Position numbers and translations under genes: made by a program
In this document: positions 8,223 to 27,573 of the stretch, one piece after another
Numbering within the stretch: position 1 is the first letter of the stretch
Layout of the letters: each line of letters opens with the position of its first letter
The notes under the pieces: model-generated
Databases searched by the model: none
The model's input: only the letters and a program-made list of their open reading frames with translations
Told to the model about the DNA's origin: nothing
Source: an uncultured virus (IMG/VR IMGVR_UViG_2711768134_000006)
Taxonomy: Duplodnaviria > Heunggongvirae > Uroviricota > Caudoviricetes
DNA length: 64,000 bases
Strand: one strand, 5' to 3'
IMG/VR virus record: IMGVR_UViG_2711768134_000006

Positions 8223-8232
8223 ATGTACCTCC

Positions 8233-11061: not shown

Positions 11062-11231
11062 CATTTTTCAGTAATTTTATATTTTATTTAGTTTAATTAA
11101 TCTTATCAAAATATAAAAATTTTTTTGATAAGATATTAAATTAAAACTACGATTTTATTGTCATTCTTATTTATATTAAAATAAATTCTTAGATTTATAT
11201 TTACATAACACAAATAACACATTTAATGAGT

Positions 11232-11600
11232 TTATTTTTTATTCCACTTTTTTAACATATTACTCAAATCAGACTCATTTATTTTATTTAAAGCTATTTC
11301 TATAGCTAAATTTTCTTTATCATAATTCACATCTATATTATATTTGTCACAAAGTATTAGCAATGTAGCTAATCCAGTTCTTTTATTTGCATCTATAAAT
11401 ATATGTCCTTGTATAATACCTACTACAATATGAGATATTTTTTCTTCAACTGTAGGATACATAACTCTACCAAATACCTCCTGGTTTATACCGTCAATTA
11501 TACTTATAGCAAGATTTTTATTTCTAATACCTATTCCAGCTCCGCCATATCTTTCAATCATCTTTTTGTTAATTTTACATATATATTCAAGTGTAATCAT
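11232..11600 (-). CDS. doc: Doc/Fic family toxin
   Basis: HIFIDANKRT Doc motif. Confidence 0.9.
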   Translation of the reverse strand: MITLEYICKINKKMIERYGGAGIGIRNKNLAISIIDGINQEVFGRVMYPTVEEKISHIVVGIIQGHIFIDANKRTGLATLLILCDKYNIDVNYDKENLAIEIALNKINESDLSNMLKKWNKK

Positions 11601-11770
11601 TTACTTGCCAACCTTCTGAATACATCATCATTTTCTTCTATACACTTATCTATTTCATTATCAGAAACCGGACAAAGATTATCTAATTCTTTTCTAATTT
11701 CTTGACTATATATATAACCTTTTGATTTTATAAATTCAAGTACTTCATCTATTGTTATTTTATCGACCAT
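11597..11770 (-). CDS. Putative Phd-like antitoxin (57 aa, not in ORF track)
   Basis: GGAGG RBS; ends ...ENDDVFRRLASK; ATGA overlap with doc. Confidence 0.75.
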   Translation of the reverse strand: MVDKITIDEVLEFIKSKGYIYSQEIRKELDNLCPVSDNEIDKCIEENDDVFRRLASK

Positions 11771-11846
11771 AATAATGCCTCCATTTTATATTATAGTTAT
11801 ATTTATATTACCCTAAAATAGTAATAATTACAACAATACAAAAATG

Positions 11847-12419
11847 TTATTTATCATACTTATTTATGTATTCTAATAATGCCATGCTCATCAAATCAGA
11901 TTTATTAAACTCTCTAAATTTTTCACAAAACTCATCAAATAAGTTCCATGCATCTTTATTCAACCTAACTGTAGTCCTTATAGCATCTTTTGAAGGTAAA
12001 TCAATTTTAATACCATCCTGTACAACTTCTATTACATTTGTATCTTCTTTATTCTCAAACCAATTTAATACATCTTGTATTTTATCATAGTCTTTTGCTA
12101 AAGAGATTATATTATTTTTAAATTGGTTGTCAATTACTATATTGTGATTATTGTCATCTTCTATTGTCATATTAAATGTATTATCATTATTACTCTGTTG
12201 TCTATTGTTTACTACCTTTGTCATACTATTGTCACCAATAAACACATACTCATCATTTATACGTTTATAACCTCTTTTAGTAAGATATTTTCTTATGCTA
12301 CTTTCAGACACACCAAGCCCTATAGCAACTTTAGTCAAACTCTTACTATCATTTAACTTATTATTAATATATTTAACTATATATATTATATCATTATTTT
12401 TCAAATCATTCCAAGTCAC
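11847..12419 (-). CDS. DNA-binding protein (N-terminal HTH, C-terminal RHH-like)
   Basis: SLTKVAIGLGVSESSIRKYL; RTTVRLNKDAW...KSDLMSMALLEY. Confidence 0.7.
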   Translation of the reverse strand: MTWNDLKNNDIIYIVKYINNKLNDSKSLTKVAIGLGVSESSIRKYLTKRGYKRINDEYVFIGDNSMTKVVNNRQQSNNDNTFNMTIEDDNNHNIVIDNQFKNNIISLAKDYDKIQDVLNWFENKEDTNVIEVVQDGIKIDLPSKDAIRTTVRLNKDAWNLFDEFCEKFREFNKSDLMSMALLEYINKYDK

Positions 12420-12605
12420 GTAATCACCTCAATTTAAGTATACTACACGAGATTACGATTGTCATACTATGTTAATCTTTTAATTCTACGTTTAATCTAC
12501 ATATCTTTCTAAACTATATCATTTTTTTACAATATTACATCTATTAATAAGTAAACAATAAAGTCAATATGCTGTAATTTAGTATATTGACTTTATATAT
12601 ACTTA

Positions 12606-14966
12606 CTACAAAATTAATCCTAAAGTGCTGTTATACTTTAACTTATTACTAGATTTTAGTACCATATATCCTTCTAATTTATTTATTAATTTCAAGTAAC
12701 ACAATCTATTAAATATAAATCCTGACACTTGAATTGAGTCACGTTGCAAATCTATATCTTCTCGATAAAAATCTTCCTCGAGAATAATTTTACAGTTTGT
12801 ATCAGTAGCTTTAAAAAGCTTAGATGCTTCGCTCTCATTATCAACAATATGTTTATAAGGTTCGAAATTAAATATTAAATCCAAACCATCGAAATTAGCT
12901 TTATACATACCAAAAATATTCTTAATTTCATTATCACAATTTATAAAACTATCTTCAAAATATTTTTTAACTACACTATTATCATAATATTCATTCAAAA
13001 TATTTTTTCTAATACTCATCGTAAAAATAGATTCTGTCTTTAATATTTTATTTAAAATAGATTTAGTTGTATTCTTAAGTTTGTCGTCATAAATTTCATC
13101 TTTACTAGGCAGAATATAAAAATTCCCATATTCACATTTATCATTACTATTACATTTACTCATTCTTTGTATTAAACTATCCATAGTTGCTAAATCACTT
13201 ATTACTATATTGAAATCTATGTCTAATGATATTTCTTGAGTAGATATCCAAACATCACCCTTTTCATCAAATATTTTATTATATTTTTCTTCTTTATCTT
13301 TAAATTTAAACCTATCATGCAAAACATTTATATCTGCATCATTATATTTATTTGATAAGTTTTCTTTTAAAAGCTTATATGTGCTATTAGCTGAGTCAAT
13401 AGTGTTTTTTATTATTAAAATTCTCTGTTTCTTTTCTAAAGCATTTTCAACTATTGATTTGATTTCTTTTTCTTTTATAAAAGAAACCTTTACATTTTTA
13501 CCTTCACAAATATCTTCTTCCTTGTTGCTCTCAATAAAAACTATCTCCCCTTTATCAGTGATATTTTCATTACATTCTTCTTGAAAAATAATTCCCTTGC
13601 TTATCATTTGCTCTTTATATGATTTTGGAAGCATAGTTGCCATTAAGTGAAAATCAACATTTAAATACTTACATGCAAACTGTATAAAATATATTAAAAT
13701 TAAAAACATCTTTGGATTCAATAAATGAACTTCATCAACAGTTATAGATGCATTTTTTACAGATGCAAATATCTTTTCATACCCTGGAAACTTAAACATA
13801 CTTAATAATAATTGGTCAATAGTTGCAATTAAATATGGTTTACAAAGATTCAAACTCAAATCTATATCTCTTAAAGTTACTTCACAATCTTGTTCATTAT
13901 AATTTTCACTATATGAATATAAATTTATATCTCCATTAAGTAATCCAAGATAATCATTTTTAAATATATTTTTTATGTAAAAACTTTCGGATGGAAATTG
14001 ATTTGGAACTAAAAATAATTTTCTTTTAAAATTCTTTCTACAGTCAGCAACTTTTTTCCCTGACCCAGTAAATGCAACAGTCAGAACATTTTTTCCAGAA
14101 AATTCTCTCAGCCTTTTTTGTACAATATTGAACTCTATATTATTATTTTCTAAATTATCATGATTATTATAGATATCATTTAAAATCATTTCATCAATTT
14201 CTTTATCAGTAAAATCGTTATAAAATTTTATATCTTTATTTGTGCCTTGTGCAACATGGTCTATTAAATTCAACATACCTTTATACAAAATATAGTTAGC
14301 TCTTCTTTGATTTAAAACTGAGTCATCTATTTGACCATTACTATAATCACTCTCTATAACCATTTTTTCACTTAATTTGTCTAAGTAATCATAATCTAGC
14401 ACATCCTCATTAAATTTAAAATCTATATTTAAAATTTCACTTATATAATCTTCTATATCTTTCAGATTAAATGATTCTTTGTTTTCTAAAATTCCATTGT
14501 CAATATACTTATAAATTTCTTCTTGTACTTTAGTAGTAGTTAATTTCATATAATCTATATAGCTTCCATGATGCAGCATTATGTTTTTATATATATAGAA
14601 TTCATCTTCTTCTGATAAGTTCATTTTTTCTAATATTGATTTTAAAAATGCTCCAGAAAACACATTGTGTCTTGCTATCTTTTCTAAAGATTTTTTTTCA
14701 AATTCTAATTTTTTTATTTCTTCTTTTGAAGAACTAGATGATATTTTATTATTAATTTCTATTTTTTGTTGTGTAATTAAATTAATTTTCCCTAAATCGT
14801 GCAAGGCACAACACACCTTTAACATTTCTATATCTTTATTTGAATATAAATTTGATTCTGATATAACTTCTAACACTTTAAACAAATTCTCAATATGTTC
14901 AACTAATGTTTGTTCTTGTTGATTAGTAATTAAATTGTATGACTTAGCCAATATTTCTTTTTTCAT
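12606..14966 (-). CDS. cas3: Stand-alone Cas3 (HD nuclease + degenerate SF2 helicase)
   Basis: LAKS start, EH, LHDLGK, RH, LHHG, D; TGSGKK, TIDQLL, DEVH, LHDRF, SLDIDF, DSLIQR. Confidence 0.9.
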   Translation of the reverse strand: MKKEILAKSYNLITNQQEQTLVEHIENLFKVLEVISESNLYSNKDIEMLKVCCALHDLGKINLITQQKIEINNKISSSSSKEEIKKLEFEKKSLEKIARHNVFSGAFLKSILEKMNLSEEDEFYIYKNIMLHHGSYIDYMKLTTTKVQEEIYKYIDNGILENKESFNLKDIEDYISEILNIDFKFNEDVLDYDYLDKLSEKMVIESDYSNGQIDDSVLNQRRANYILYKGMLNLIDHVAQGTNKDIKFYNDFTDKEIDEMILNDIYNNHDNLENNNIEFNIVQKRLREFSGKNVLTVAFTGSGKKVADCRKNFKRKLFLVPNQFPSESFYIKNIFKNDYLGLLNGDINLYSYSENYNEQDCEVTLRDIDLSLNLCKPYLIATIDQLLLSMFKFPGYEKIFASVKNASITVDEVHLLNPKMFLILIYFIQFACKYLNVDFHLMATMLPKSYKEQMISKGIIFQEECNENITDKGEIVFIESNKEEDICEGKNVKVSFIKEKEIKSIVENALEKKQRILIIKNTIDSANSTYKLLKENLSNKYNDADINVLHDRFKFKDKEEKYNKIFDEKGDVWISTQEISLDIDFNIVISDLATMDSLIQRMSKCNSNDKCEYGNFYILPSKDEIYDDKLKNTTKSILNKILKTESIFTMSIRKNILNEYYDNSVVKKYFEDSFINCDNEIKNIFGMYKANFDGLDLIFNFEPYKHIVDNESEASKLFKATDTNCKIILEEDFYREDIDLQRDSIQVSGFIFNRLCYLKLINKLEGYMVLKSSNKLKYNSTLGLIL

Positions 14967-15060
14967 GGTAAACACCCAACTTTCAAGATAATTTAAAAGC
15001 ATATTTTACTATAATTAACATAAAAAATTATCTTTATATATTTGTAACACCAACATATAC

Positions 15061-15603
15061 TTATTTCTCTTTTGATTGTATCATTTTAAAAACATCTGTT
15101 TGCAGTAAGGAAGCATACATCTTTTCTACTATAGGCATGGCCTTTTTTCTAAAATCTTCTGATAAAACATAATTCTCATCAATATAAGATTCTTTATATG
15201 ATATAATATCAAAATTTAATATTTGAAGAGACTCTACATAATAGCTTTCAAATTGCTTAATGTTTTCAACTAAGTCTTTTGAAAAATGTATAACATCATA
15301 TGACTTAACTTTGTTAAAATCAATATATCTATTAGAATCTGTATAAAAATCAATATTTTCAGAAGTAAGTTTTAAAATATTTGCATTACTATGTATATCT
15401 ATATCATAAGGTATTGGGTCTCTAACCAAATCTGGACAAGCTAATGTAATAACAAACCATTCAGAGTAAAATTCATTTTTGGGGCAACACCATAATCCAC
15501 CTTTTATTTTATTTTGCTTACTTACTCCATTAGGTTTTTTAAATTTTTCTTTTGATATTTCTCCTATTCCATATGTAAAATACATGTTTTCCCTCTTTTC
15601 CAT
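15061..15603 (-). CDS. Hypothetical protein
   Basis: 180 aa, KGGLWCCP motif. Confidence 0.65.
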   Translation of the reverse strand: MEKRENMYFTYGIGEISKEKFKKPNGVSKQNKIKGGLWCCPKNEFYSEWFVITLACPDLVRDPIPYDIDIHSNANILKLTSENIDFYTDSNRYIDFNKVKSYDVIHFSKDLVENIKQFESYYVESLQILNFDIISYKESYIDENYVLSEDFRKKAMPIVEKMYASLLQTDVFKMIQSKEK

Positions 15604-15689
15604 AAAAATTAATATTATTAGTTATATTGTACATTACCATATCTTATTTTTCTATTTATATTTTATTGAAATTTAATAAACAAGTTAAA

Positions 15690-16223
15690 TCAATTATTAT
15701 TAAGCAAATTATTAAAAAGAATAATATCATGATAATAATAATTTTCTATACTTCTTTCAACTATTACTTGCAATTCTTGTTTACGATTTTCAATATTCTT
15801 TTTTATTTCTTCTGAAAAATCTGACAAACTATCTTCTAGATTTCTTTCAATTAATTCGTCAAAGCTGTCTTTGTTGAATTTTTTATAACTTTCCCAATCC
15901 AAATCTTCATTTTTAATTTTACACCATTTTTCAAATTCTTCATAATCATTTAAGTAACAAGGTTCTCCTAGTAATTCATTAACACTTATTTTTTCTTTGT
16001 TTAATTCACAAATAAAAATTTCTCTTTCATAAATATCTTCTACATATTTAAGCGAGTTATGAACTGATATAGCTTCAACTTTACCTTCTAAATTTATATA
16101 TATTCTTATAGTATTATCTTCTGCTAAAAAACTTTCCTTATAAACTTTTATAGCTTCTTCTTCTATTTTATCTATATTCTTATCTATTATTTTTAAAAAT
16201 CTTTTTATTTTTTTATAATTCAT
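15690..16223 (-). CDS. Hypothetical acidic protein
   Basis: 177 aa with AGGAGG RBS. Confidence 0.7.
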   Translation of the reverse strand: MNYKKIKRFLKIIDKNIDKIEEEAIKVYKESFLAEDNTIRIYINLEGKVEAISVHNSLKYVEDIYEREIFICELNKEKISVNELLGEPCYLNDYEEFEKWCKIKNEDLDWESYKKFNKDSFDELIERNLEDSLSDFSEEIKKNIENRKQELQVIVERSIENYYYHDIILFNNLLNNN

Positions 16224-16283
16224 CTTAATTCCTCCTATTTTTAAATTCTATTTTATAGTTTTTGAAAATAAATTTAATTACAC

Positions 16284-16616
16284 CTAGTATTCTATTTCTA
16301 TTAATTTATTTTTATCCTTTAGATACTGCTCAATACCTTCTTCAACTTTACCTCTAAGCTCTGATAATTCGTCACAAAATTGGTCACATTCACTAGGCTG
16401 CTCTAAGTCTAAAATTTCATCATACTCTCTTGTAAAAATTTTATGGTTATATGGTATATATATAGTATATTCTATATATCCTTTAAATCTAAAATCTTGA
16501 CTCATTTTCATATCTACCTTTAAATCATTAACTTTAATTGTGCAATTTTCTATATTTTCTATTTTAAATCTAAAATCAGGTATATAATGCCACTCTTCTT
16601 TAAAATATTTCTGCAT
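16284..16616 (-). CDS. Hypothetical protein
   Basis: 110 aa with GAGGTG RBS. Confidence 0.7.
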   Translation of the reverse strand: MQKYFKEEWHYIPDFRFKIENIENCTIKVNDLKVDMKMSQDFRFKGYIEYTIYIPYNHKIFTREYDEILDLEQPSECDQFCDELSELRGKVEEGIEQYLKDKNKLIEIEY

Positions 16617-16630
16617 ATCAATTCACCTCT

Positions 16631-16948
16631 TTATAATTTCTCTATATTTATTATTTTTATTATAGAACTACAAACATCTTCCTCGTTTTTTTCTACCACT
16701 TCAAATTCAATATTTACATCTATATCATAATCTTCACCTAATCCACAATATGTATAATTACAAGCTCTTATATATTCTTCCGTGTCTCCAGATGTGAAGA
16801 AGTCCCAACTATTTGTTCTTTCTACTGTTCTAGCATATAATTCTTGTACCTCATTATCAAATTCAATTATATTAAATTCCCCCTTTTTTAAACTTTCTAT
16901 TTCTTCTAAAAATTCTATTATTTTATTTTCCATTTTAGTCATCTCCAT
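16631..16948 (-). CDS. Hypothetical acidic protein
   Basis: 105 aa in operon. Confidence 0.65.
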   Translation of the reverse strand: MEMTKMENKIIEFLEEIESLKKGEFNIIEFDNEVQELYARTVERTNSWDFFTSGDTEEYIRACNYTYCGLGEDYDIDVNIEFEVVEKNEEDVCSSIIKIINIEKL

Positions 16949-16951
16949 TTT

Positions 16952-17458
16952 TTAATTATTTTTATATACAACAGTTCTTTCGCTCTTTTCAATTTTTGTA
17001 AGATACTCTAAAAATTCTTTAATTTCTTGCTTGTTTATGCCTATAAATTCGTGTCTAATTTCACATTTTTCAATACGTGTAGAATATTTCTCTTCTAATT
17101 TATAAAACCTAGGTCTTATATTAGCTATAAGGTCACTTTCTATATTTTTGCTACATAAGCTATTTACATATATTAAAATGTTTTCTATATTTTCTATGTC
17201 TACTTTGTCACCCTTTGAGTAATAAAATTCAAATTTCAATCTTATTCCTATTCTACTGCTAATTTCACCATGACTCCATGTTTCAATTTTTAAACTCTTT
17301 CCAGATATTTCTTTAACGCACCCCACGTGACCGTTTGCACAATCTTTAAGACTTATATCAAATATATCATTGTTGATTTTATTAATCTCTTTTTCTATCA
17401 TTTTAACATTCTCTTTATTAACTTTTAAATCTAATATTGTACTAAAATCTATATTCAT
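16952..17458 (-). CDS. Hypothetical protein
   Basis: 168 aa with GGAGG RBS. Confidence 0.7.
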   Translation of the reverse strand: MNIDFSTILDLKVNKENVKMIEKEINKINNDIFDISLKDCANGHVGCVKEISGKSLKIETWSHGEISSRIGIRLKFEFYYSKGDKVDIENIENILIYVNSLCSKNIESDLIANIRPRFYKLEEKYSTRIEKCEIRHEFIGINKQEIKEFLEYLTKIEKSERTVVYKNN

Positions 17459-17534
17459 GTTTTAAACCTCCATTTATTTTATATTTTAATTATAACATCT
17501 GTTGGTGAACTATATTTGTACCAATCCAAAATTT

Positions 17535-18617
17535 TTAACAATTTACTCCTCTATAAAATAAATGCCATATTAATTCTATTTTTCTTGATATTTCTTCTAT
17601 TTTTCTAATACTTTCAACTTTAGATTCTTTAATTTCTTTAAATCCATTTATGAAATATCTTGGGTTTTCTTGTATTAATGTCTCTATAATAAGTTCTTTT
17701 GTTTTTTCCGTACTTGCATTAGGAACTTGTTTTATTATTTCATCGAATATTTCAACTATTTTAAGTACATTTTCTTTTATCTCATTAGCCCATGTGTTGT
17801 TAAATTTTATTTCTCTAGCTATCTTCTTAGCTTCTTCATAACTTATGTTATAATCTTTAACCTTTTTTAATTTGTGTGGTACTTGTGTTTCATATTCCAG
17901 TAAGCTCCATATTTTACTTTCTTCTACAAATTGAGAATTTTTTAATGTCTGATTTATATGAAATGCTTTTTGCTCTAAAGAATTATGTTCTAAAATATCT
18001 TTGAAATTATCTATAAAGAATTTAGCACTTTCTATACTTCTCATTCCTTCTTTTATTCTTTTAAACTTTCTTTTACATTTTTCTGTCATTTCTTCTATGC
18101 TCTTGTCTTTTACTTTATGATCTCCGTCTTTTATTTTTTTCATTTTAATCTTTTCTAGTTCGTCAACAAAATTTAAAACATTATCTCTTATTTCATTAGC
18201 CCATTCAACTTGTTTTTCAGAACCATTTAACGTTAATACATTAAATGAATTTTCTTTTATTTCTTGACTGACATTATCTTCCTCATAAATTTCTTTTGAA
18301 TACATTTCAATTATTTCATCAGTAAATAAACCTATAAATTTTTTTAACGTATCAGAGTGTTGTGATATAAAATAAAAATTTTCATCATTGCAATCATAAT
18401 AAATTTTTAATTCAGAAATATTACCTAATTTTTCAACACATTTAGCTCTCTTAGTTACTCCTAGTCCTTTTCCTAATCCAATTCCAAAATCATTGTTTTT
18501 AATAAATTCTTTAAAATTAATTTTGCTTGGAATTTGACTTATATAAATCCTCTTATGATTTCCACCTTGCCATAATTTATATTCTTTAAGTAAATTTTTT
18601 TCTAATAAAATTCCCAT
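17535..18617 (-). CDS. Hypothetical protein with duplicated WANEI domain
   Basis: LNGSEKQVEWANEIR...FFIDNFK and WANEIK...YFINGFK. Confidence 0.75.
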   Translation of the reverse strand: MGILLEKNLLKEYKLWQGGNHKRIYISQIPSKINFKEFIKNNDFGIGLGKGLGVTKRAKCVEKLGNISELKIYYDCNDENFYFISQHSDTLKKFIGLFTDEIIEMYSKEIYEEDNVSQEIKENSFNVLTLNGSEKQVEWANEIRDNVLNFVDELEKIKMKKIKDGDHKVKDKSIEEMTEKCKRKFKRIKEGMRSIESAKFFIDNFKDILEHNSLEQKAFHINQTLKNSQFVEESKIWSLLEYETQVPHKLKKVKDYNISYEEAKKIAREIKFNNTWANEIKENVLKIVEIFDEIIKQVPNASTEKTKELIIETLIQENPRYFINGFKEIKESKVESIRKIEEISRKIELIWHLFYRGVNC

Positions 18618-18799
18618 TTTTATACCTCCTTATAAATATCTAATTGAATGGTGAACTATTTTGTATCAAATAAAGATTTTATATTGTAAAACCTTTTAAT
18701 TTCCCATCTTTAATAATGAACGATAAACCCATTGTAGACCATCTATAAGCATCATACAAACTTATTTTATGTATATCTTTTATATAACATATCATAATA

Positions 18800-19285
18800 T
18801 CATTCTCCTATATAAAATTTTATGCAATTAATTAAATCAATTTTATTATCTAATTTTAAGTACCAATCTCCCATACAAGAAGGATAGAAATAGTACCTAT
18901 TATCCTTATTTATATATGATATTGAACTTCCATCACTTAAAAACACTTTAATGTTTCCATTGTTATTTAACTTATTAATCACGTATATATTACTTAAATG
19001 ATTTATATTACTTGATAGCTCTTTGTAAGTTGCAACTGCATTATCTAAATCTTTTTTATTATCAAAACTATAATTCCAATCGCCTAAACATGTAGGATAG
19101 AAATTATAAACTTGCTCTTTAGTATCATATAAAACTACACTTTCATCTTCTAAAACTTCAATAACTCTATCCGTAGATTCTACATAAAAATTATCTAATT
19201 CAGCAGCCTTAACTTTTGTTACTCCTGCAACTCCTACAATGATTAAACCTAATAACATTCCAATAAGTATATTTTTAAATTTCAT
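18800..19285 (-). CDS. Secreted protein with internal duplication
   Basis: Signal peptide ending VKA; FYPTCLGDW / FYPSCMGDW. Confidence 0.75.
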   Translation of the reverse strand: MKFKNILIGMLLGLIIVGVAGVTKVKAAELDNFYVESTDRVIEVLEDESVVLYDTKEQVYNFYPTCLGDWNYSFDNKKDLDNAVATYKELSSNINHLSNIYVINKLNNNGNIKVFLSDGSSISYINKDNRYYFYPSCMGDWYLKLDNKIDLINCIKFYIGE

Positions 19286-19602
19286 TTTTATATCCTCCTA
19301 GTTTATAATTATGACCCCGTACAAGCCTCTATAAGCTGTTTGAAAATCATCTTAATGTATTTATACCTTTTGATTTTTATAATCTTTAAAATCTTTTTAT
19401 CAAATCACTATCATTATCATTTGAACTATAATACTATAGCTATAATAATAGCGATTTGATAACTCATATATCATATTAAAAATATAATTTTAAACTCTTT
19501 TATTACTTCATGTCCTATATTAAAGATATGACACTCTTTTATATAAAATATAATCCTCATCTATATAAAATTCATTGTCATTAATTCATCGCCTACATAC
19601 AT

Positions 19603-20187
19603 TTATTGCATACTTTTATATAGTTCTTTTAAATCTTCATTTTCATCTAATATTACTTTTAAAGGTTTCATAGTATAACAACTTTTATATTTATATTTGT
19701 TTTTATTGTAATTTTCATCAAATTTACTCATATATTCCTTATACTTGATAAACAAACTGTTTAATATATCTATATCTATCAATCCAGACTTACTAAGTTT
19801 ATTCATTCTCATACAACTATCTATCATACGAGCCAAAGACCAAGCCACTTCCGCAATTGCATCTTCTAACATTTGTTCATTAGATTTATAAGCATAAGAA
19901 CCTTCTTTGTATTTAGTATTATTCTTCACTATTTTATTAAGATTTGTCTCTATATCTAAACCCTTACTGTAGTACTCCATACATTTGTAATGTTTTTTTA
20001 TCTCTCTCGACAATGCTTTGTAAAATGTAACATTCAATTTCATTATTTTTTCTACACATGTTAATCCAACATGAAAAACTTCTCCTGTAACATTATTTTT
20101 TATTGTAGCTATATTTTTTATAGTTCTTCCACAGTGGTCACAAGCTCCTTTACCTTTTGTATAACTTATCAAAATATACTCATTCAT
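19603..20187 (-). CDS. Zn-finger-containing hypothetical protein
   Basis: CDHCGRTIK...VGLTC. Confidence 0.7.
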   Translation of the reverse strand: MNEYILISYTKGKGACDHCGRTIKNIATIKNNVTGEVFHVGLTCVEKIMKLNVTFYKALSREIKKHYKCMEYYSKGLDIETNLNKIVKNNTKYKEGSYAYKSNEQMLEDAIAEVAWSLARMIDSCMRMNKLSKSGLIDIDILNSLFIKYKEYMSKFDENYNKNKYKYKSCYTMKPLKVILDENEDLKELYKSMQ

Positions 20188-20237
20188 GCTTAAACCTCCA
20201 ATTATATTAAAAGTTGAATTTTATTTAGTTTATCTTA

Positions 20238-20585
20238 TCAATAATTTTGATTGATTGAATAATCTATAGTTCTTCTAAAACCATTTTGTGCTTTTAATCT
20301 ATAAATTCTTTCAAAATCATTTTGTATATCTTCAAATATATTAATATATTTTATATACTTATAAATTATGTCAATAGAAACAATTTCATAAAATAACTCA
20401 TTTTCTATTATATATTTTACGCTATATAGATTATACTCTTTTACATTTTCAAAGAACATTTTAATTACATCTGACAAGTTATTATCTTCTTTTATACGTT
20501 TTATCATTTTTATTCTTTGTGTATTTCTTTGTAGTGTATTCCCATCAAATTTTTTTGATGATTTTATTATACTCATTTCCAACAC
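20238..20585 (-). CDS. NGFRRT(M/I)DY paralog family copy 2
   Basis: KAQNGFRRTIDY. Confidence 0.8.
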   Translation of the reverse strand: MLEMSIIKSSKKFDGNTLQRNTQRIKMIKRIKEDNNLSDVIKMFFENVKEYNLYSVKYIIENELFYEIVSIDIIYKYIKYINIFEDIQNDFERIYRLKAQNGFRRTIDYSINQNY

Positions 20586-20588
20586 CTC

Positions 20589-21347
20589 CTAATTATTCCA
20601 ACTATAAATATCTTCCATACTTTCTATTCCATCTATCATTGCATGTATCTCGTTAAATTTATCAATAGGTATATCCTCCCACTTCTCAACATTGTATATT
20701 GAGAATAGTCTTGCAACTACAGTTCTATAGTCGTAGTTATAAGCATTTACATTATATCCTTTTAATTCTGATAATCTTATTTTTAGTAATGTTGACAATG
20801 TTCTTATATTTTTAGTCTTCAAACCTACCATATCTTTCATTTCTTGGAATTGTCTATCTTGTTTTTCATATTTCATATCTAATTTAGTTTCTATCTGATT
20901 AAATCTAGTGTCTATCTTTTTATCATTTTCTATTGATAATTGTTCAAATCCTGCTAACATACCATTTAACATTACTGGCATTAATACGTCTTTTATGTTA
21001 TTAGTATTAATACTAAATGAACCATGTTTACGGATATTTGGTAATACCTCATCAGTAACCCAATCTTGAAATTTTTCGGCCTTTTTCTTTTTAGATGCAA
21101 AAATTAATTTATACACTCCACTTTCTGTTAGAAAATTTTCTCCTCTATTATTTAGTTTTCGGAAATCGTGGTCTCCGATTTCTGAATTAGTCAACTTAAT
21201 TACTTGCTTTTTGTTCATTCTGCTTATGTTATCATTTACATTTTTTATGTCTAAACATTCTGCCACATCTCTTGGATTAAATAAAATCTTCCCATCAAGT
21301 TCAAATATTTCTACCTCTTTACCTTCAAATACCATTAAATTATTCAT
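20589..21347 (-). CDS. BRO-N antirepressor
   Basis: FLTESGVYKLIF..K..AEKFQDWVTDEVLP.IRKHG; paralog of 51294..52007. Confidence 0.9.
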   Translation of the reverse strand: MNNLMVFEGKEVEIFELDGKILFNPRDVAECLDIKNVNDNISRMNKKQVIKLTNSEIGDHDFRKLNNRGENFLTESGVYKLIFASKKKKAEKFQDWVTDEVLPNIRKHGSFSINTNNIKDVLMPVMLNGMLAGFEQLSIENDKKIDTRFNQIETKLDMKYEKQDRQFQEMKDMVGLKTKNIRTLSTLLKIRLSELKGYNVNAYNYDYRTVVARLFSIYNVEKWEDIPIDKFNEIHAMIDGIESMEDIYSWNN

Positions 21348-21388
21348 ATTTTTCCTCCTATAAATTAATTATTTTTTACTTAGATTAT

Positions 21389-21655
21389 TTAAAATTCTTT
21401 ATATTGAATTTTATTTTCATTATCTAAATACATCATATTATTAATATTTTGTATTAATTGCTGTCTCAATTCTTCTCCTTTTAAAGCCCAATCTAATCCG
21501 ATTAAATTTCTTAATCTAGTATTTAAAGAATTATAAGTTCCTGCTTCTCCTATTATTTTATTTTCTAAAAGGTCACATATATTTATTAAATCTGTTGCAG
21601 TCATATATTCAGAATAATTTATCATTTTTAACTCTCCTATTTTATTTACAATCAA
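21389..21655 (-). CDS. Hypothetical protein
   Basis: ORF in operon. Confidence 0.6.
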   Translation of the reverse strand: MIVNKIGELKMINYSEYMTATDLINICDLLENKIIGEAGTYNSLNTRLRNLIGLDWALKGEELRQQLIQNINNMMYLDNENKIQYKEF

Positions 21656-21986
21656 TTGTTTCCTCTATTTCTTTTAAGTTCACAGAAGATATAAAAGATA
21701 GAATTTTCTTCCTATTTAATCTATCAGTTTCAATTATATAATTTTCAAGTTGATGTAAAATTTTAATACTACTTTCCAATAATGATGATATTTCTAAAAA
21801 ACATATATCATTAGATTTTGCTATATCTGTATAATAATCAAACTCTTCTTTTAACTCTTCAAATTTATCCTTGTACCCCTCTGTATCTTGATGTATTTCT
21901 ATCCAATTGTATAAATCATCATCAATTTTGTCTCTTAAATCTTCTAATTTTGTAATATAAATCCCTAGACTTGAAATGTATTTCAT
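21642..21986 (-). CDS. Hypothetical protein
   Basis: 114 aa with GGGGG RBS. Confidence 0.65.
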   Translation of the reverse strand: MKYISSLGIYITKLEDLRDKIDDDLYNWIEIHQDTEGYKDKFEELKEEFDYYTDIAKSNDICFLEISSLLESSIKILHQLENYIIETDRLNRKKILSFISSVNLKEIEETIDCK

Positions 21987-22000
21987 AATTATTGCCCCCT

Positions 22001-22141
22001 TTATAATTTATTAGCCTGTTCCAATAATTCTAATTGATTGCTGTTTCCATATTTTGAAATAATACTTTCTGTAGTACTCCAATAGCTACTATCTAAATCC
22101 TTTTTAAACAATGATTTTATCTTAATTATTAATTTTTTCAT
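22001..22141 (-). CDS. Small hypothetical protein (46 aa)
   Basis: AGGGGA RBS; fills operon gap. Confidence 0.5.
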   Translation of the reverse strand: MKKLIIKIKSLFKKDLDSSYWSTTESIISKYGNSNQLELLEQANKL

Positions 22142-22212
22142 GATTTATTCCCCTTTCAATTTTTTTATTGGAAGTGGCGTTTTTAAAGAACGCCCTAAAA
22201 CTTTTTATTTAG

Positions 22213-22470
22213 TTATTTGATGATAGTATTAGTAGAATTTAAATCTTTTCTATACTTATCATAGTCAAAATATCTTTCAAGTACTTCTTTAGCTAAATAT
22301 TTAATATTTTTTGATTCTCCAATGTAAAGTTTAGCAAATTCAATAGTATCCATATTGTTATAGTATTCTATCTCATCTCCATCTATATAGTCATCAATTA
22401 TCCTGCTTTTGTAAGGTTCTAAATCTCTTGCAAAAGCTTCTAAGTTAAAATAATGGTAAAGATTTTTCAT
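22213..22470 (-). CDS. ArdA-like antirestriction protein (minimal)
   Basis: YFNLEAFARDL and YFDYDKYRKDL resemble the ArdA YFDYEAFARDL motif; acidic centre. Confidence 0.6.
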   Translation of the reverse strand: MKNLYHYFNLEAFARDLEPYKSRIIDDYIDGDEIEYYNNMDTIEFAKLYIGESKNIKYLAKEVLERYFDYDKYRKDLNSTNTIIK

Positions 22471-22495
22471 TTTTATAGTCCTCCTTTTTTTATTT

Positions 22496-22574
22496 GTTCT
22501 GTCCGAATGATTTATTAAAAATTTTTATTTGTTTTGATATTTTTATTATAATGCATTCTGTCCGAATGAGTCAA
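22496..22574 (-). promoter_or_regulatory. Promoter with two operator copies
   Basis: TTGACT-18-TATAAT; CATTC-TGTCC-GAATG palindrome at 22554-22568 with near copy at 22496-22510. Confidence 0.6.
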
Positions 22575-22599
22575 GTGTTTTTTTGAGTAGATTTTGCAT

Positions 22600-22788
22600 C
22601 TACTCAGTTATTTTTTCTATTATTATTTTTTCACCATCAAAAGTTAATGTAACTTCCCTATCTAATTTAGTTATATCCATTTGTTTAACCCAATTAGTAG
22701 GAATTGTTATTCTATTTGTGACTGAGCCTTTACTTGCAGTTCCTCCACTTGTAGTAAATAATACTTTTGCTTTTCTCTGCTCATACAT
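22600..22788 (-). CDS. AbrB/MazE-like DNA-binding protein
   Basis: RITIPTNWVKQMDI...VTLTFDGEKIIIEK. Confidence 0.8.
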   Translation of the reverse strand: MYEQRKAKVLFTTSGGTASKGSVTNRITIPTNWVKQMDITKLDREVTLTFDGEKIIIEKITE

Positions 22789-22882
22789 TCGTTATACCTC
22801 CAATGATATTATTGTTTAATAATACCATACTAAGAGCTTGTAGAAAAGACACTCAATAATTCAAGTGTCTTTTTATGTATTA

Positions 22883-23215
22883 CTATTTAATTGATTTTAA
22901 CTTTGCTATTTCATTCCAATTTTTAGATGTAGCCATTTCTACAAAGTTCATGTCATTTTTTAAAGTGTCTATTTTTTCTCCAACTTCTGTTATGCCTTCC
23001 ATGTTTCTAGCAACTTGATTATAAGTTAAGTCTAGTTTCTTTTTAATTTCTTCTTGCCCTTCTTTTAAATCACTAAGTTGGTTTTCAATCCCATCAAAAC
23101 GACCATCCATACTATCTAGTCTAGTATTAATCCATTTTATTTCTCCTTGTATATCATTAATACTAGTATCCATTTTTTGTAATAATTCTAATATTTTTTC
23201 ATCCATGCCGTTCAC
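22883..23215 (-). CDS. Coiled-coil protein, paralog of 24537..24914
   Basis: MDEKILELLQKMD, heptad RLD/RFD repeats, QVARNME. Confidence 0.75.
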   Translation of the reverse strand: MNGMDEKILELLQKMDTSINDIQGEIKWINTRLDSMDGRFDGIENQLSDLKEGQEEIKKKLDLTYNQVARNMEGITEVGEKIDTLKNDMNFVEMATSKNWNEIAKLKSIK

Positions 23216-23259
23216 ACTCCTATTTTATTATTATATCATAATTTAAGTGTTGTATTCTA

Positions 23260-23781
23260 ACACTTACTAAAATAATCTAATAAATAGTTTAAATTATACT
23301 AGTAAATATTAGATAGTTTATAACCATGTAGGTGTCAAGCAGTACAAACTATAATTTTAATGCTCAATCTTTAGTACTTTTTATAACGCAGTACCTCACA
23401 ACTGCTATGTCATATTAAATTGTATTGAGTGCCATTATAGAAGCAACTAAGTTGATACCTCAATTTTTTGTAGGCTTTAATTGGAAACCTTTATTAATTT
23501 TATTTACTTAATTACTTAATGTTGGGAACACCTCACCAACTGGTATGACTAATTCATTTTTGTAGTTAAAAAATGAAGAAAAAACTATGTGTAATATTTG
23601 TGTTGTGTGCCTTTCACCATTCACACCATTAAAAGGTCAACTTAAAGGTAGTAATTTTTTAATAGTAGTTTAATATTTTTTAATAGAACCCTTTAAGATA
23701 TTAGCTAGAGTTTTAAGAAGGTTCTTTGCCTGTTACTTCATTTGAGAGGTGGCTTTGTGTTTTCTTGTTCTCCCTTGCTAT
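23260..23781 (-). ncRNA. Candidate large structured ncRNA or leader RNA
   Basis: ORF-free ~520 nt behind a consensus promoter; multiple hairpins, three carrying UGAGGU at the loop. Confidence 0.55.
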
Positions 23782-23787
23782 GATTTA

Positions 23788-23895
23788 ATTATATATCCAA
23801 ACGGATATATTGTCAATATTTATTTTTATAATTTAATAAAAAATATATCTAAACGGATGTTAATATATTTAGATATACGACCGATTGGATATATA
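23788..23895 (-). promoter_or_regulatory. Consensus SigA promoter plus three Xre-type operators
   Basis: TTGACA(23811-16)-17-TATAAT(23788-93); ATATATCC-AAAC-GGATATAT at 23791-23810 and two variants. Confidence 0.8.
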
Positions 23896-23952
23896 ACTGA
23901 TTGTTCTTAATAAATATATATGATATTATAATAAATATAAAGAGGTGATAAA

Positions 23953-24270
23953 ATGATTAGTGATAGATTAAGAGAACTAAGAAAAGAAAAAGGCTACACA
24001 ATTAAAGAGTTAGCACAAATTATAAATGTTTCAGATATTTCAATCAGTAGATATGAAAACAACAAAAGGGATGCAGATATAAAAACATTGAAAGAGTTAG
24101 CAAAATTATATGATGTATCATTAGACTATATAACTTGTCTTACAGATAATAGAGAAAATATACAACTTGAAGAAGAAGAAGTCAAACTATTAGATAATTA
24201 TAGAGAGTTAGACACTAAAAGTAAAACAATAGTACAAGAACAAATAAATACATTAAAAAAACTACTGTAA
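23953..24270 (+). CDS. Xre-family HTH repressor
   Basis: RLRELRKEKGYTIKELA...ISRYENN...VSLDY. Confidence 0.95.
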   Translation: MISDRLRELRKEKGYTIKELAQIINVSDISISRYENNKRDADIKTLKELAKLYDVSLDYITCLTDNRENIQLEEEEVKLLDNYRELDTKSKTIVQEQINTLKKLL

Positions 24271-24442
24271 GCTAGACATATATATTCTAGCTTATTTTTA
24301 TATTCAATTTTAAAAACTAAAGGTATAAACATAAGGCAATCATATTACAATACGCTTAAAATGGCATATAATAGCTTGTATAATATATTATATTGTGTAG
24401 AATGTATTATAATATAACCATATCAAAAAAATCCGACAACCT

Positions 24443-24474
24443 GCATACTTATATAGATATATATATCAATATGC
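24443..24474. repeat. 13-6-13 palindromic site, copy A (inverted copy at 32070-32101)
   Basis: GCATACTTATATA-GATATA-TATATCAATATGC. Confidence 0.75.
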
Positions 24475-24536
24475 GAGTCATCGGAAAAATTAAAAATATA
24501 AAAGTACTTAACAAAATGTCAAGTACTTTTTATGTA

Positions 24537-24914
24537 TTATTGTAATTTTATTTTTATTTCTTCTAATTGTTCCATATTTCTAGCGACTTGGTCGGTTGCT
24601 CCATTTAGCTTTCTATTAATCTTAATTACTCTAGTTTCTATTGCATTTAACTTAATGTCAACCACATCAAAGTTATCTTTAATAGAAGTCATTTCCTCTG
24701 CTGTTGAAATAGATTGATTATATAGTATATCTTGTTTCTTTTCAATACTGTCAAGCCTATTTTCTATACTATCAAATCGCTTGTCCATGTTATCAAGTCT
24801 GTTGTTAGTTTCAACCTGTCCAATTTTTAAATCATTGATGTCCTGTTTCATTTCAGTAATATTACTATCCATTTTCTGTAATAATTCTAGTATCTTTTCA
24901 TCCATCACGACCAC
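24537..24914 (-). CDS. Coiled-coil protein, paralog of 22883..23215
   Basis: MDEKILELLQKMD...QVARNME. Confidence 0.75.
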   Translation of the reverse strand: MVVMDEKILELLQKMDSNITEMKQDINDLKIGQVETNNRLDNMDKRFDSIENRLDSIEKKQDILYNQSISTAEEMTSIKDNFDVVDIKLNAIETRVIKINRKLNGATDQVARNMEQLEEIKIKLQ

Positions 24915-25449
24915 GCTCCTTTTATTATTATAACATAATAGTTAATGTTATATACAGCTAATTGTCGTATTCTAATCAACTTGTGTCATTATAAGTTTTC
25001 ATTTGTCACACTTCCTTTTGATTTTATTTAATTAATGATTTAATAATACATTACTTTCCAATTTTTGTCAATACGTTCTATTATATTTATATATTTTATT
25101 TAGTTATTGTCCTTGTAAAAATATTGCTTATCATATTGATATCACTAGCTTATGAGTACATAATTGTGTGAATTATTTTTTATATCTACTATAGTATGCG
25201 AATTTGATTAATGATTAAGAAATGTAGTGATTATGTGATAGATGCTAATAATGTAATGATAATATTAAGCTAATAATGTAAGAGTTCTATTTCTATAAAC
25301 TTTTTTATTTAATAATGAACACAAAAAAAATAATAACTCATGCTATCATCTTTAAAATAACATAAATTATTATTTCTAATAAAAAGTAAGATTTAGTACC
25401 TTTTTATTCGTTTTTAACAAAGTAATTTCTTTTCTTAACATACATTAAT

Positions 25450-25481
25450 AACGTCGTATAATAAGATGATTATGCGACGTT
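25450..25481. other. dif/cer-like recombination site candidate
   Basis: AACGTCGTATAA-TAAGATGA-TTATGCGACGTT palindrome. Confidence 0.55.
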
Positions 25482-25527
25482 GACCCTAAAAATAGAAGAA
25501 AGGGGGCTATTTTTAGACTTTAGTATC

Positions 25528-25548
25528 AAATGATATTCATTATCATTT
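25528..25548. promoter_or_regulatory. Fur-family box candidate
   Basis: AAA-TGATATTCATTATCA-TTT; one mismatch to TGATAATNATTATCA. Confidence 0.5.
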
Positions 25549-26377
25549 TGTAGTCCTTTTTCTTCTACATCCCAAATTCCATTCAGCCCTTAAAATAAAC
25601 ATTTATACAAAATTACACCATTAATTCAAATTTTTAAACATACACTCATGAACAATTTCAAACCGTCTCCGAGTATTATAAAACAGTGTTAATTCAATAC
25701 TTATTTTTCATTAATCATGATAAAAAATAGCCCCATCTATGTTTTGAACCTATGTTATAAGGCTAAAGCATGAACATGGGGTGTATGTTTTATTTTAATT
25801 TATATGAACTATATAAAATATATATTATATCCTATAAATCAACTATAATTGTTATAAAATAATTTTAAATAGTGTATGTTTTAAATTTGAACATCTCAAA
25901 ATCCTATAGACAAAATTTTAATTCTATCAAGTTATCATTTTTTACTTAAAATTCAATACAATTCAAACAAAATATACTTCATGCAATTTATTCAAGATTA
26001 AAACATATAAATATGCCTATTTTATAGAAAAATATATAGTAATTTATATAATTTTTCATATCAATTTTCGTAGACACTATACTCCAGAAAATCAATCTAA
26101 AATGATAAGTTTTATAAAATAATTTTCAAACTTAAGTAGTGTATGTATGGTTTTTATAAAAATTATTAATATTTAATATGCAATTGCATATAAATTATAT
26201 TAAAATTTATAATTAAATGTAAAACAAATTGTAATATAACTTTCTTTACGATTGTAGTATATGTTGTATTACAATTATAGTTTAATAGTATATATAATTT
26301 ATATTAAATTCGCATTGTAATTATATACCAATTGAAATATAATTAAACTAAATGAGCTATAAAAGGAGGGGATTTTT

Positions 26378-26611
26378 ATAAAAAAGGATACTTATAATTT
26401 ACAGATACCTATTCCAATAGAATTAGCTGATAAATTAAAATCACTAGCTGAAAAGGATGAAAGAAGTTTAAGATTGTATTGTAAAAGAGTACTACAATTA
26501 CATGCAAATGAAATTTATAATAATAATAATGATATTGACGAAGCTAATACTAATAATCAAAATGAAACAGCTAAAAAAAGAAAAGTAGGAGCTTTAAAAC
26601 CACAAAAATAA
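26378..26611 (+). CDS. RHH/Arc-like partition adaptor (ParR-like), ATA start, not in ORF track
   Basis: AAAGGAGG RBS; YNLQIPIPIELADKLKSLAEKDERSL; directly upstream of parM. Confidence 0.75.
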   Translation: MKKDTYNLQIPIPIELADKLKSLAEKDERSLRLYCKRVLQLHANEIYNNNNDIDEANTNNQNETAKKRKVGALKPQK

Positions 26612-26628
26612 TTTAGGGGGATTTACTT

Positions 26629-27573
26629 ATGAAAAAAGAAAAAGTAAAAGTTGCAGTAGACTTAGGTAATAGTATGCTTAATTCAGCAGCATATATTGAA
26701 AAAGAATTAATTTTAAAAAAGTTACCAAATAAACTTCAATTTGAAAAAACAATATCACCAAAAGCACGTGTTATGAAAAAAGATGGTAAGGTAATCTACC
26801 TAGGTGTAGGAGATTTAAATAATAATGTTCTTAAACATACTAGAAAAAATTTATTAGAACAAGTTTTAGTCATGATTTATGAAATATTTCCTGATGAGGA
26901 TAATCTTTCTGTGGAATTGATAACCGGATTACCACCAACTCAAATGTTTAATGAAAAATATTTGAAATTATTTCAAGATATTTTTATTCAACCTGGAGAA
27001 ATAAAAATTACTATTGATGGAAAACAAAAGACTTTTGAAATACTTAATGTTGATGTTAAAGCAGAAGGATATTCAGGATTTATTTCACTTGTAGACAAGA
27101 TTACTACTAAACAGAATATTCTAGGAATAGATGTTGGAGGCAGTACTACAGATTTATGTAATTATGAATATGATTATGAGGATGATATGTACTATCCTAA
27201 TGTAACAGACACTATAGAAAAAGGAATCATAGACTTTGAAACAGCAATAGCAAATAAATTTAATAGTAAAAATGGTGCAGATATAAAAATAAGTCAAATA
27301 GATGTAATATTAAGAAACGATATTGATGTTATAGAGTATGAGGGTTCTAAATATAAATTAGATGATTATATTGATGCCATGTACCCTATTATTGATGATA
27401 TGATTAATAAAATCACTAATAAATTTGGTCAGCTAGATGGATATTATGTTGTTGGTATTGGAGGGGGCTATAAAACATTTAATAAATATGCTAATCAATT
27501 TATAAGTAAACAACTAGAAGTCGATGATGATTCTCGTTTCTATGCAAATGTAATTGGATACCTTGAACAATAA
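26629..27573 (+). CDS. parM: ParM/StbA actin-like segregation ATPase
   Basis: VDLGNS, AEG, GIDVGGSTTD, GIGGG. Confidence 0.9.
   Translation: MKKEKVKVAVDLGNSMLNSAAYIEKELILKKLPNKLQFEKTISPKARVMKKDGKVIYLGVGDLNNNVLKHTRKNLLEQVLVMIYEIFPDEDNLSVELITGLPPTQMFNEKYLKLFQDIFIQPGEIKITIDGKQKTFEILNVDVKAEGYSGFISLVDKITTKQNILGIDVGGSTTDLCNYEYDYEDDMYYPNVTDTIEKGIIDFETAIANKFNSKNGADIKISQIDVILRNDIDVIEYEGSKYKLDDYIDAMYPIIDDMINKITNKFGQLDGYYVVGIGGGYKTFNKYANQFISKQLEVDDDSRFYANVIGYLEQ

Follow-up and report, generated by a model that had tools for sequence, protein, structure and literature searches.

The left arm of the uncultured virus IMGVR_UViG_2711768134_000006 (IMG/VR), of which we analysed a stretch of 64,000 nt (here called the window), is a long series of minus-strand genes, and between its leftward-firing promoter and the first of these genes there is a gene-free interval of about 575 nt. 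The question that this locus raises is what such an interval is for. We propose, with moderate confidence, that positions 23207-23781 are the untranslated 5' leader of the early-left operon and that this leader acts in cis on the stability or processing of the mRNA; it is a real, conserved and family-specific element, probably with a regulatory role.

The window is located inside a 134,311-base viral record with terminal repeats. A 901-base query (window 23100-24000) matches nine phage records (seven covering at least 80% of it) and seven plasmid records (six covering at least 80%). Identity over the 901 bases is 100% for the Clostridioides phages LIBA6276 and LIBA2945 and ~92% for phiCD211/phiCDIF1296T and several C. 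difficile plasmid records; judged by these matches, the window is part of a large phiCD211-like Clostridioides difficile phage-plasmid. In annotated relatives the interval is intergenic, flanked on one side by the gene of a hypothetical protein and on the other by that of a 'putative transcriptional regulator / repressor RepR'. The phiCD211-like phage-plasmids are common in C. difficile, and we know of no description of their lysis-lysogeny control. A term search of one paper on these phages (PMC5786514) finds no occurrence of the words 'non-coding', 'intergenic' or 'promoter', and other literature searches listed nothing on the leader element.

The early-left promoter and its exchangeable candidate operators

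A preliminary description of this DNA, made from the letters alone, had a perfect TTGACA-17-TATAAT promoter firing leftward under repressor control into some 550 nt with no open reading frame (ORF). The elements that bear on these claims, including a divergent helix-turn-helix (HTH) gene and the Shine-Dalgarno (SD) sequence of the first leftward gene, are as follows.

23816..23788, minus strand: early-left promoter P_L, with TTGACA at 23816..23811, a 17-nt spacer and TATAAT at 23793..23788; predicted start at ~23781
23792..23809, within the P_L spacer: candidate operator O1, the palindrome TATATCC-AAAC-GGATATA, read from the sequence
23845-23860, toward the HTH gene: O1-related copy ATATCT-AAAC-GGATGT
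23873-23892, toward the HTH gene: degenerate O1-related copy
23953..24270, plus strand: divergent HTH_3 (XRE/cI-type) regulator (PF01381, E 7.9e-18)
22883..23206, minus strand: first gene of the operon, encoding a 107-aa coiled-coil protein, with SD AGGAG at 23221..23217 and ATG at 23206; annotated as a coding sequence in MF547662

P_L scores 12 of 12 against the consensus and is the sole perfect site in a promoter scan of 22700-24400, a segment whose promoter-like sites taken together number 14, about what chance would give (13.6 expected). The phiCD211 counterpart of the HTH_3 regulator is annotated as 'putative repressor RepR' (LN681537), and relatives with different regulator genes have different palindromes in the same -35/-10 spacer. 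This is the pattern that a repressor-controlled promoter with exchangeable immunity would be expected to show, and with a spacer palindrome particular to each immunity type the proposed repressor control looks supported, binding at O1 itself being predicted from the sequence.

Between the predicted start and the annotated ATG at 23206 the minus-strand ORFs are all of 38 aa or fewer; the longest (23624..23508, GTG start, no SD on reading) sits in a segment that half of the relatives lack, and the plus strand of the leader contains no ORF longer than 28 aa. The claim of an ORF-free interval is thus borne out, with ~575 nt lacking any credible ORF, and the description of a non-coding, promoter-headed leader to the leftward operon is supported.

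Conservation and modular anatomy of the leader

Relatives from GenBank and PLSDB (L002-L009) were compared with the window (L001), and a scan of IMG/VR with a 19-mer spanning the -10 box gave 28 loci. Seven of these loci (six distinct sequences) diverge right past the 19-mer and were dropped, which leaves 18 distinct related versions. The -10 box and the next 12 bases are invariant in all 18, and the conserved block begins exactly at the TATAAT of P_L: 13 distinct relatives show on average 37% pairwise identity over the 60 nt that precede the -10 box. This mean rises to 91% for the initial 81 transcribed nt and 93% for the 3' 300 nt of the leader, then falls to 85% in codons 1-20 of the gene and to 55% in its positions 61-260. 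No other non-coding DNA of the switch region is as well conserved as the leader, which is an entry point to the C. difficile phage-plasmid switch. Because it is common to phages with unrelated repressors and operators, it offers a good handle on where the early promoter lies, for induction reporters and on the post-transcriptional control of early mRNA in a clostridial phage. A pattern scan for one of its hairpins (hairpin 3, below) finds 26 loci, every one in the same phage family, so that the element is confined to one family among 2.9 million viral contigs; in the phage's own genome no second leader copy was found, the sole weak match being of 29 nt.

The component parts, in the order of leftward transcription, are these.

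23701..23781, minus strand: conserved 5' unit of ~81 nt, in 18 of 18 versions irrespective of immunity type
23555..23699, minus strand: dispensable middle module of ~145 nt, missing from nine of 18 versions, with a 21-nt tandem repeat (CTATTAAAAAAT...) present twice, and three times in L025
23553-23577, minus strand: hairpin TTCATTTTT/AAAAATGAA
23521..23540, minus strand: hairpin 1, GUUGG-UGAGGUGUUC-CCAAC, in 14 of 18 versions
23472..23490, minus strand: small hairpin AGGUUU/AAGCCU
23452..23463, minus strand: hairpin 2, UUGA-GGUA-UCAA, 4 bp
23388..23405, minus strand: hairpin 3, GCAGU-UGUGAGGU-ACUGC
23256..23313, minus strand: long hairpin of 22-24 bp, 5' arm CUAAUAUUUACUAG..., 3' arm ...UUAGUAAGUGUUAG
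23245..23265: palindrome AAGTGTT-N7-AACACTT, which shares bases with the 3' arm of the long hairpin and with the P2 -35 region
23238..23230, minus strand: gene-proximal promoter P2, extended -10 TGATATAAT, with a second candidate TGTTAGAAT at 23262..23254

The full form is found in nine of the 18 versions. The ~145 nt of 23555-23699 are missing from five, two more are additionally without hairpin 1, and one further version lacks more still; in a 245-nt version (L003 3284-3528) just the 5' unit, hairpin 3 and the promoter-proximal part remain. Short tandem duplications also vary in number, the 21-nt unit occurring two or three times and TTAAGTAA two to four times. The leader is a chain of modules and not one large folded RNA. 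The 'type 2' leaders, which precede paralogous coiled-coil genes, each have a promoter and operator repeats of their own; all that they have in common with the window is the hairpin-3 module and ~110 nt at the end of the leader. A gene-start pattern scan revealed no additional leader types with hairpin 3.

A strand-specific hairpin upstream of the first gene

The strongest element of the leader is the long hairpin, which the preliminary description had missed. It folds at -21.5 kcal/mol on the minus strand (z -5.41 against shuffled sequences, none of 200 as good) versus -9.2 kcal/mol (z -1.96) on the plus strand. In an alignment of nine type 1 and eight type 2 versions, 17 distinct sequences, its 22 pairs are paired in 97.9% of 374 cells, compared with 31-53% in slid controls. 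Three pairs are changed on both sides (U-A/A-U; A-U/G-C; C-G/G-U/U-A) and seven on one side, mostly to or from G-U, and the covariation score of 0.266 is reached by none of 500 shuffles (0.167). Its many G-U pairs would be A-C on the plus strand, where the consensus fold does not recover the long hairpin and gives only an 8-bp palindrome, AAGUGUU/AACACUU. These comparisons are good evidence that the long hairpin is a minus-strand RNA structure, and as a strand-specific, covarying element it supports minus-strand transcription over the 3' part of the leader. The gene-proximal promoter is downstream of its 5' arm, and the hairpin can therefore form only in transcripts that come from further upstream, i.e. 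from P_L.

The hairpin ends 35 nt before the SD of the first gene. The palindrome that overlaps its 3' arm differs between type 1 and type 2 by two compensatory pairs (AAGTACT/AGTACTT in type 2) and could serve either as an operator in the DNA or as an alternative hairpin in the RNA. Masking of the SD by sequence past the long hairpin was also considered; an ACACUU/GAGUGU pairing is possible in type 1, but the fragment has a z of +0.35, and in type 2 the partner is different and non-conserved, and the idea was rejected.

The UGAGGU hairpins and the whole-leader fold

The preliminary description gave prominence to three hairpins with UGAGGU loops and to a number of further stems. The three TGAGGT copies are at exactly the positions claimed (23530-35, 23457-62 and 23393-98 on the minus strand), the 'ACCTC near the 5' end' is GCCACCTCTC at ~23753..23744, and all of the listed stems are present in the sequence; taken singly they are weak. 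Over the window as a whole TGAGGT occurs 19 times on the two strands together (16.8 expected), with 12 copies on the minus strand; three within 143 nt are a significant local cluster (by Poisson arithmetic ~2e-4 per leader-length, ~0.02 corrected for window positions).

Hairpin 1 is missing from L004, L005, L032 and the second copy in L003, has the loop CGAGGU in three versions, and folds with a z of -1.13 (27 of 200 shuffles as good). Hairpin 2 (z -1.63, 13 of 200) loses a pair in L003 and L012, where the first stem base is C; it can also be read as the -35 of a TTGAGG-18-TATAAT promoter-like site, and as a structure it is not supported. Hairpin 3 is better (z -2.68, four of 200) and is the core of a ~40-nt module that recurs in the type 2 leaders of paralogous genes. 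Its stem is invariant save for one G-C to G-U change (L099), and its loop has the variants GAAG, AAGG, GAGA and UAAG; GAGG is lost from three of the 18 versions behind a P_L-type promoter (to GAAG, AAGG or GAGA) and changed in four of eight type 2 leaders, L003 3284-3528 being counted in both sets. The small AGGUUU/AAGCCU hairpin appears in the consensus fold of 11 versions with 64 of 66 cells paired and includes a U-G pair that is valid on the minus strand alone. Two candidates were discarded: the CTCAAT/ATTGAG stem is broken in three of 11 relatives, and an extension of the hairpin 3 stem (UAUGAC/GUUAUA) is broken in several versions.

No covariation was found in hairpins 1-3, one of the checks that had been proposed for them, and for hairpins 1 and 3 this test is uninformative because their stems never vary. 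Within type 1 leaders alone compensatory changes are seen at none of 19 pairs in the 5' unit and none of 76 in the 3' 300 nt. For the leader as a whole the fold energy is -106 kcal/mol, with a z of -1.77 on the minus strand (four of 100 shuffles as good) and -0.10 on the plus strand. With the loop motif not conserved in the leaders just counted, the suggestion of a protein sponge displaying SD-like loops is not supported; a tidy set of SD-like hairpin loops need not signify a new class of RNA.

A proposed role in cis for mRNA stability or processing

There are four motifs of SD strength in the leader, AAGGGAG at +8 (the 5' unit also contains GCCACCUCUC) and three GAGGU(G/A), with duplex energies to the 16S 3' tail (taken from L072) of -11.2, -9.4, -9.2 and -7.0 kcal/mol. 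The value of -11.2 belongs to GAGGUG of hairpin 1 and is the strength of real SDs: over the 17 gene starts scanned, 13 lie at -10.2 to -12.5 kcal/mol and two at -7.9 and -6.2, and three scanned starts show no SD (+0.6 to +1.5 kcal/mol). None of the four motifs is followed at 5-9 nt by ATG, GTG or TTG, and a UUG 10 nt past the hairpin 2 motif opens a mini-frame of a mere three codons. A mini-ORF in the 5' unit (AUG-AAG-UAA) was rejected, its ATG being lost in seven of 15 versions.

We suggest that transcription would start at the repressor-controlled P_L and run leftward via the leader into the first gene, and that the modules would act in cis on the fate of the mRNA. The four SD-strength motifs with no start codon behind them may bind 30S subunits and block 5'-to-3' decay, as does STAB-SD in the cry3A leader, and the 22-24-bp hairpin upstream of the ribosome-binding site (RBS) is a likely processing site for a double-strand RNase or 5'-stabilising element, which would set the mature 5' end of the early mRNA. 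That RNase III or RNase J would be the enzyme involved we purely infer.

The cry3A leader of Bacillus thuringiensis is likewise a long untranslated leader of a Firmicute (558 nt there, ~575 nt here), in which STAB-SD binds 30S subunits and stops RNase J1 (PMC4113751). The motifs here resemble STAB-SD in their SD strength and complementarity to the 16S 3' end and in having no start codon behind them, and a shorter, more abundant downstream RNA is plausible in this case too. They differ in being four and not one, in that three lie in hairpin loops, and in not being strictly conserved, and a real second promoter, P2, may explain the deeper downstream coverage here.

The lambda P_L leader has nutL and an RNase III-sensitive hairpin before N, RNase III sites are present in Bacillus phage early mRNAs, and long near-perfect hairpins in phage early leaders are double-strand RNase substrates. 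The locus studied here is like lambda P_L in that an early-left promoter under repressor control is followed by an untranslated leader, with a long, near-perfect hairpin shortly before the RBS of the first gene. Unlike lambda, no boxA or boxB was found and no N-like protein identified, and the hairpin here overlaps an internal promoter.

RNA-library contigs and a gene-proximal promoter

The TGnTATAAT of P2 is kept in all 17 of the type 1 and type 2 versions. When 185,579 species genomes were searched with the protein as anchor, four loci emerged; the two distant homologues of the first gene among them (in a Peptostreptococcaceae genome and a Clostridium metagenome-assembled genome, 30-31% identity) are without the long leader and have TGTTATAAT (L068) and TGCTATAAT (L069) immediately upstream. 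The first gene has an extended -10 promoter of its own.

RNA-library contigs of four of the 24 runs listed (X1, X2, X4 and X8, from three studies) were compared with the region; they are unstranded, the libraries may hold DNA, and there is one depth figure per contig. Contigs cover 23331..23793 in runs from all three studies, which speaks for presence and not for direction or ends. In three of the four runs the depth of the gene contigs is 4-10 times that of the leader contigs (4296 versus 419 in X2, 520 versus 52 in X4, and 71 versus 17-18 in X8). A single contig spans leader and gene in X1 and X2 (22871/23059..23793), and in X1, X2 and X4 contigs join the leader to the regulator gene. The uncovered segments 23856-23946 and 24402-24856 reflect strain sequence divergence and are uninformative; the contig gap at 23253-23330 coincides with the long hairpin, but this stretch is also extremely AT-rich, and the contig ends at 23331, 23333 and 23765 are only a weak hint. 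Because of the contig depths and the conservation of P2 in the distant homologues, we suggest that in the lysogen the first gene would owe most of its expression to this extended -10 promoter within the 3' end of the leader.

Several observations weigh against a cis-acting leader. Two clades (type 1 and type 2) supply most of the covariation in the long hairpin, so that the independent events are few, about four. In X4 and X8 the contigs stop at 23331/23333 and at 23214/23252, and continuity of leader and gene is therefore seen in only two of the four runs, both of one study; being unstranded, the contigs show neither the 23781 start nor in which direction 23331-23781 is transcribed. In a lysogen P_L should be repressed and hence silent, yet the leader contigs match the repressor-gene contigs in depth. 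The 5' unit folds better on the plus strand (99.2% versus 78.8% of cells paired), the whole-leader fold barely beats its shuffles, and the incomplete conservation of the GAGG motifs weakens a ribosome-binding role.

An antisense RNA as the main competing explanation

One further feature lies inside the 5' unit on the opposite strand.

23732..23763, plus strand: terminator-like hairpin GUUACUUC-AUUUGA-GAGGUGGC followed by UUUGUGUUUU

It raises the prospect of a sense/antisense pair, in which a plus-strand countertranscript of ~400-435 nt (23331 or 23363 to 23765) is made in the lysogen and ends at a terminator abutting P_L, and its GC-rich ACCUCA loops kiss the UGAGGU loops of any P_L transcript to bring about decay, attenuation or interference. 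This would be a second layer of immunity, like pCF10 Anti-Q/Qs, P22 sar and ColE1 RNA I/II, and although we think it improbable it is the main rival of the leader reading. The terminator-like site (23732-23753 plus U-run) is the sole one in 22700-24400, and its extended fold uses four invariant G-U pairs that fail in the minus-strand mirror, which accounts for the difference in paired cells given above. On the other hand, one such site against 0.3 expected is not significant, the hairpin is not individually significant (-10.8 kcal/mol, z -1.72), the 5' unit as a whole reaches a z of -1.6 on each strand with no compensatory changes, and the plus-strand z for the region is near zero. The contig ends at 23331 (X4), 23333 (X8) and 23765 (X8, close to the terminator-like hairpin) have no loose ends and would fit a countertranscript, but the gap at 23253-23330 is very AT-rich and strongly paired and may simply be poorly covered.

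Plus-strand TATAAC (23319-23324) and TATAAT (23351-23356) are possible -10 boxes for such an RNA, but they have neither a -35 nor a TG motif, and the best match in the scan, TTCACA-17-TATCAT at 23211-23239 (10 of 12), is not a convincing promoter. With a partner transcribed from the same DNA one would expect what is seen here, invariant stems and loops free to vary, and leader contigs as deep as those of the repressor gene in presumably uninduced cultures also fit; against this, the best-supported structure of the region is specific to the minus strand. The arrangement resembles pCF10, ColE1 and P22 in its GC-rich-loop hairpins in an AT-rich leader beside a divergent repressor and in the opposite-strand terminator-like site inside the leader, and differs from them in lacking a convincing opposite-strand promoter, the contigs here being unstranded.

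A combined possibility, that the leader and a plus-strand countertranscript together form a two-strand RNA switch as a second immunity layer of phiCD211-like phage-plasmids, is a speculative one that we would not bet on. If true, a ~400-nt antisense RNA of the lysogen, with its end at the terminator beside P_L, would kiss the GC-rich loops of any P_L transcript that escapes, processing of the early mRNA into a stable form would hinge on the long minus-strand hairpin, and loop mutations would create specificities of immunity at the level of RNA with the protein repressor unchanged.

The operon, all of it on the minus strand, has a second plus-strand terminator-like hairpin at 22583-22617 (10 pairs and a T-run). 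It sits immediately upstream of a minus-strand promoter that scores 11/12 (22574..22545). The two plus-strand terminator-like sites hint at contained antisense transcription.

Other explanations of the conserved block

Conservation could also be at the level of DNA, the block being a recombination 'linker' between mosaic modules together with promoter and operator DNA (the initial region of P_L, P2, the palindrome at the P2 -35 and repeated TTGNTGAGGT motifs as protein sites), with the RNA having no function of its own. A sharp island of identity between hypervariable flanks is typical of mosaic junctions, the modules are gained and lost by insertions, deletions and short tandem duplications, AAGTGTT/AACACTT at the P2 -35 co-varies as a palindrome, hairpins 1 and 3 share CAGTTG(G)TGAGGT in different stem registers, and the TGAGGT copies are spaced 73 and 64 bp apart. 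The G-U pairs and strand asymmetry of the long hairpin would be unexpected of a DNA palindrome, however, and the adjacent coding sequence is less well conserved than the 300 nt of non-coding DNA at 93% identity. We regard this account as unlikely for the block as a whole; a DNA-level role for much of it is possible, without explaining the strand-specific hairpin.

The early-left operon contains the coiled-coil gene, a gene for an AbrB/MazE-like protein (a weak match) and, 1.9 kb downstream of the leader on the minus strand, a gene for a Bro-N 'antirepressor'-type protein (20589..21347, PF02498, E 7.5e-20), 'antirepressor' being an annotation label for a putative function. This layout, in which a phage-plasmid has a promoter under repressor control and behind it a non-coding leader, then small genes and the Bro-N gene, fits a small trans-acting immunity RNA of the P1 c4, N15 CA or P4 CI type, cut from the leader of an antirepressor operon and able, by pairing with sites further down the same transcript, to keep the antirepressor from being translated or transcribed; N15 CA RNA is reportedly a precedent for immunity RNA in a phage-plasmid. 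The best duplex of the leader with nine downstream RBSs (-19.4 kcal/mol) is nevertheless at chance (shuffled -19.1 +/- 1.7, 44 of 100 as good), ACCTCA, the complement of the loops, is absent from the minus strand of 1-23200 (all plus-strand TGAGGT copies lie beyond 32000), there is no Rfam match, and the leader is several times longer than the RNAs of those systems, which makes this explanation very improbable.

Equally improbable is a leader for processive antitermination (nut, put or EAR-like) that would make polymerase terminator-resistant over the 23-kb left arm, an option put forward in the preliminary description. The leader does come straight after an early promoter that heads a long operon of same-strand genes, and its promoter-proximal 81 nt are the most constant module. 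But a simple scan for intrinsic terminators found none on the minus strand in 3400-23300, its only hit being on the plus strand; the fold of the 5' unit is not significant, and a boxA-like similarity to the rrn-leader motif of a family relative (L070-L073) was rejected, its score of 8 being reached at 1351 of 12792 window positions, with ~1000 scoring higher.

A large autonomous structured RNA of the ROOL, GOLLD or OLE size class (ROOL and GOLLD being named in the preliminary description), which the ~570 nt with no ORFs, the phage location and the high conservation would fit, is excluded for practical purposes: Rfam cmscan gives no match to the whole window at gathering score and, at E<=10 for 22800-24400, six chance-level matches all far below cut-offs, the fold is weak (z -1.77), half of the versions lack at least 150 nt and one functional-looking version of 245 nt has just the 5' unit, hairpin 3 and the long hairpin, covariation is absent outside that one hairpin with no global covarying fold, and the element is restricted to a single phage family.

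The coiled-coil gene family and other leader types

The product of the first gene has sub-threshold Pfam matches only, to coiled-coil/XhlA-like proteins. A paralogue lies at 24537..24905, and the N-terminus MDEKILELLQ is conserved among 11 paralogues. Members of this coiled-coil family (22883..23206, 24537..24905 and loci L040-L064) are of 86-128 aa with the invariant N-terminus and mosaic, repeat-rich bodies, and are often in tandem, each heading a promoter/operator module beside an HTH gene.

Type 2 leaders in L041, L042, L057, L058, L062, L063 and L005 540-1000 have immunity-specific direct repeats upstream of the -35 and at ~+45 (AAATCCGAAAAA; TCGTAAAATCG; ATTCGTAACGAG), which suggests that operators flank each promoter and that there are several independent repressor/operator pairs per phage. 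In the window, TTGACA-17-TATTAT at 25042-25070 on the minus strand heads a third leader type (~135 nt, without hairpin 3) in front of the paralogue at 24537..24905, and this has in common with the leader studied here only TTAGAATAC and the TGTTATAAT/RBS part. The exact 19-mer TATAATTNAATCATAGCAA is common to six unrelated viral contigs (L014, L022/L037, L023, L031, L035 and L039), several with TTGAC at the -35 and then complete divergence; from an order-of-magnitude estimate we judge this to be a chance promoter match.

A second ORF-poor stretch of 1.7 kb (24915-26628) lies upstream of a ParM/Alp-like actin gene (26629..27573, PF21522, E 3e-07). A ~35-nt repeat occurs in it at 25845 and 26105, together with numerous inverted repeats rich in AT, and the stretch may be a plasmid partition or replication region. 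An open frame of 77 codons before parM (26378-26611, plus strand, IKKDTYNLQIPIPIELADKLKSLAEKDERSLRLYCKRVL...) has a GGAGGGG SD and no canonical start at its head, and the annotation of a relative retains its last 45 aa alone. A Pfam search places this small ORF in no family; our impression is that its product resembles a ParR/ribbon-helix-helix-type protein.

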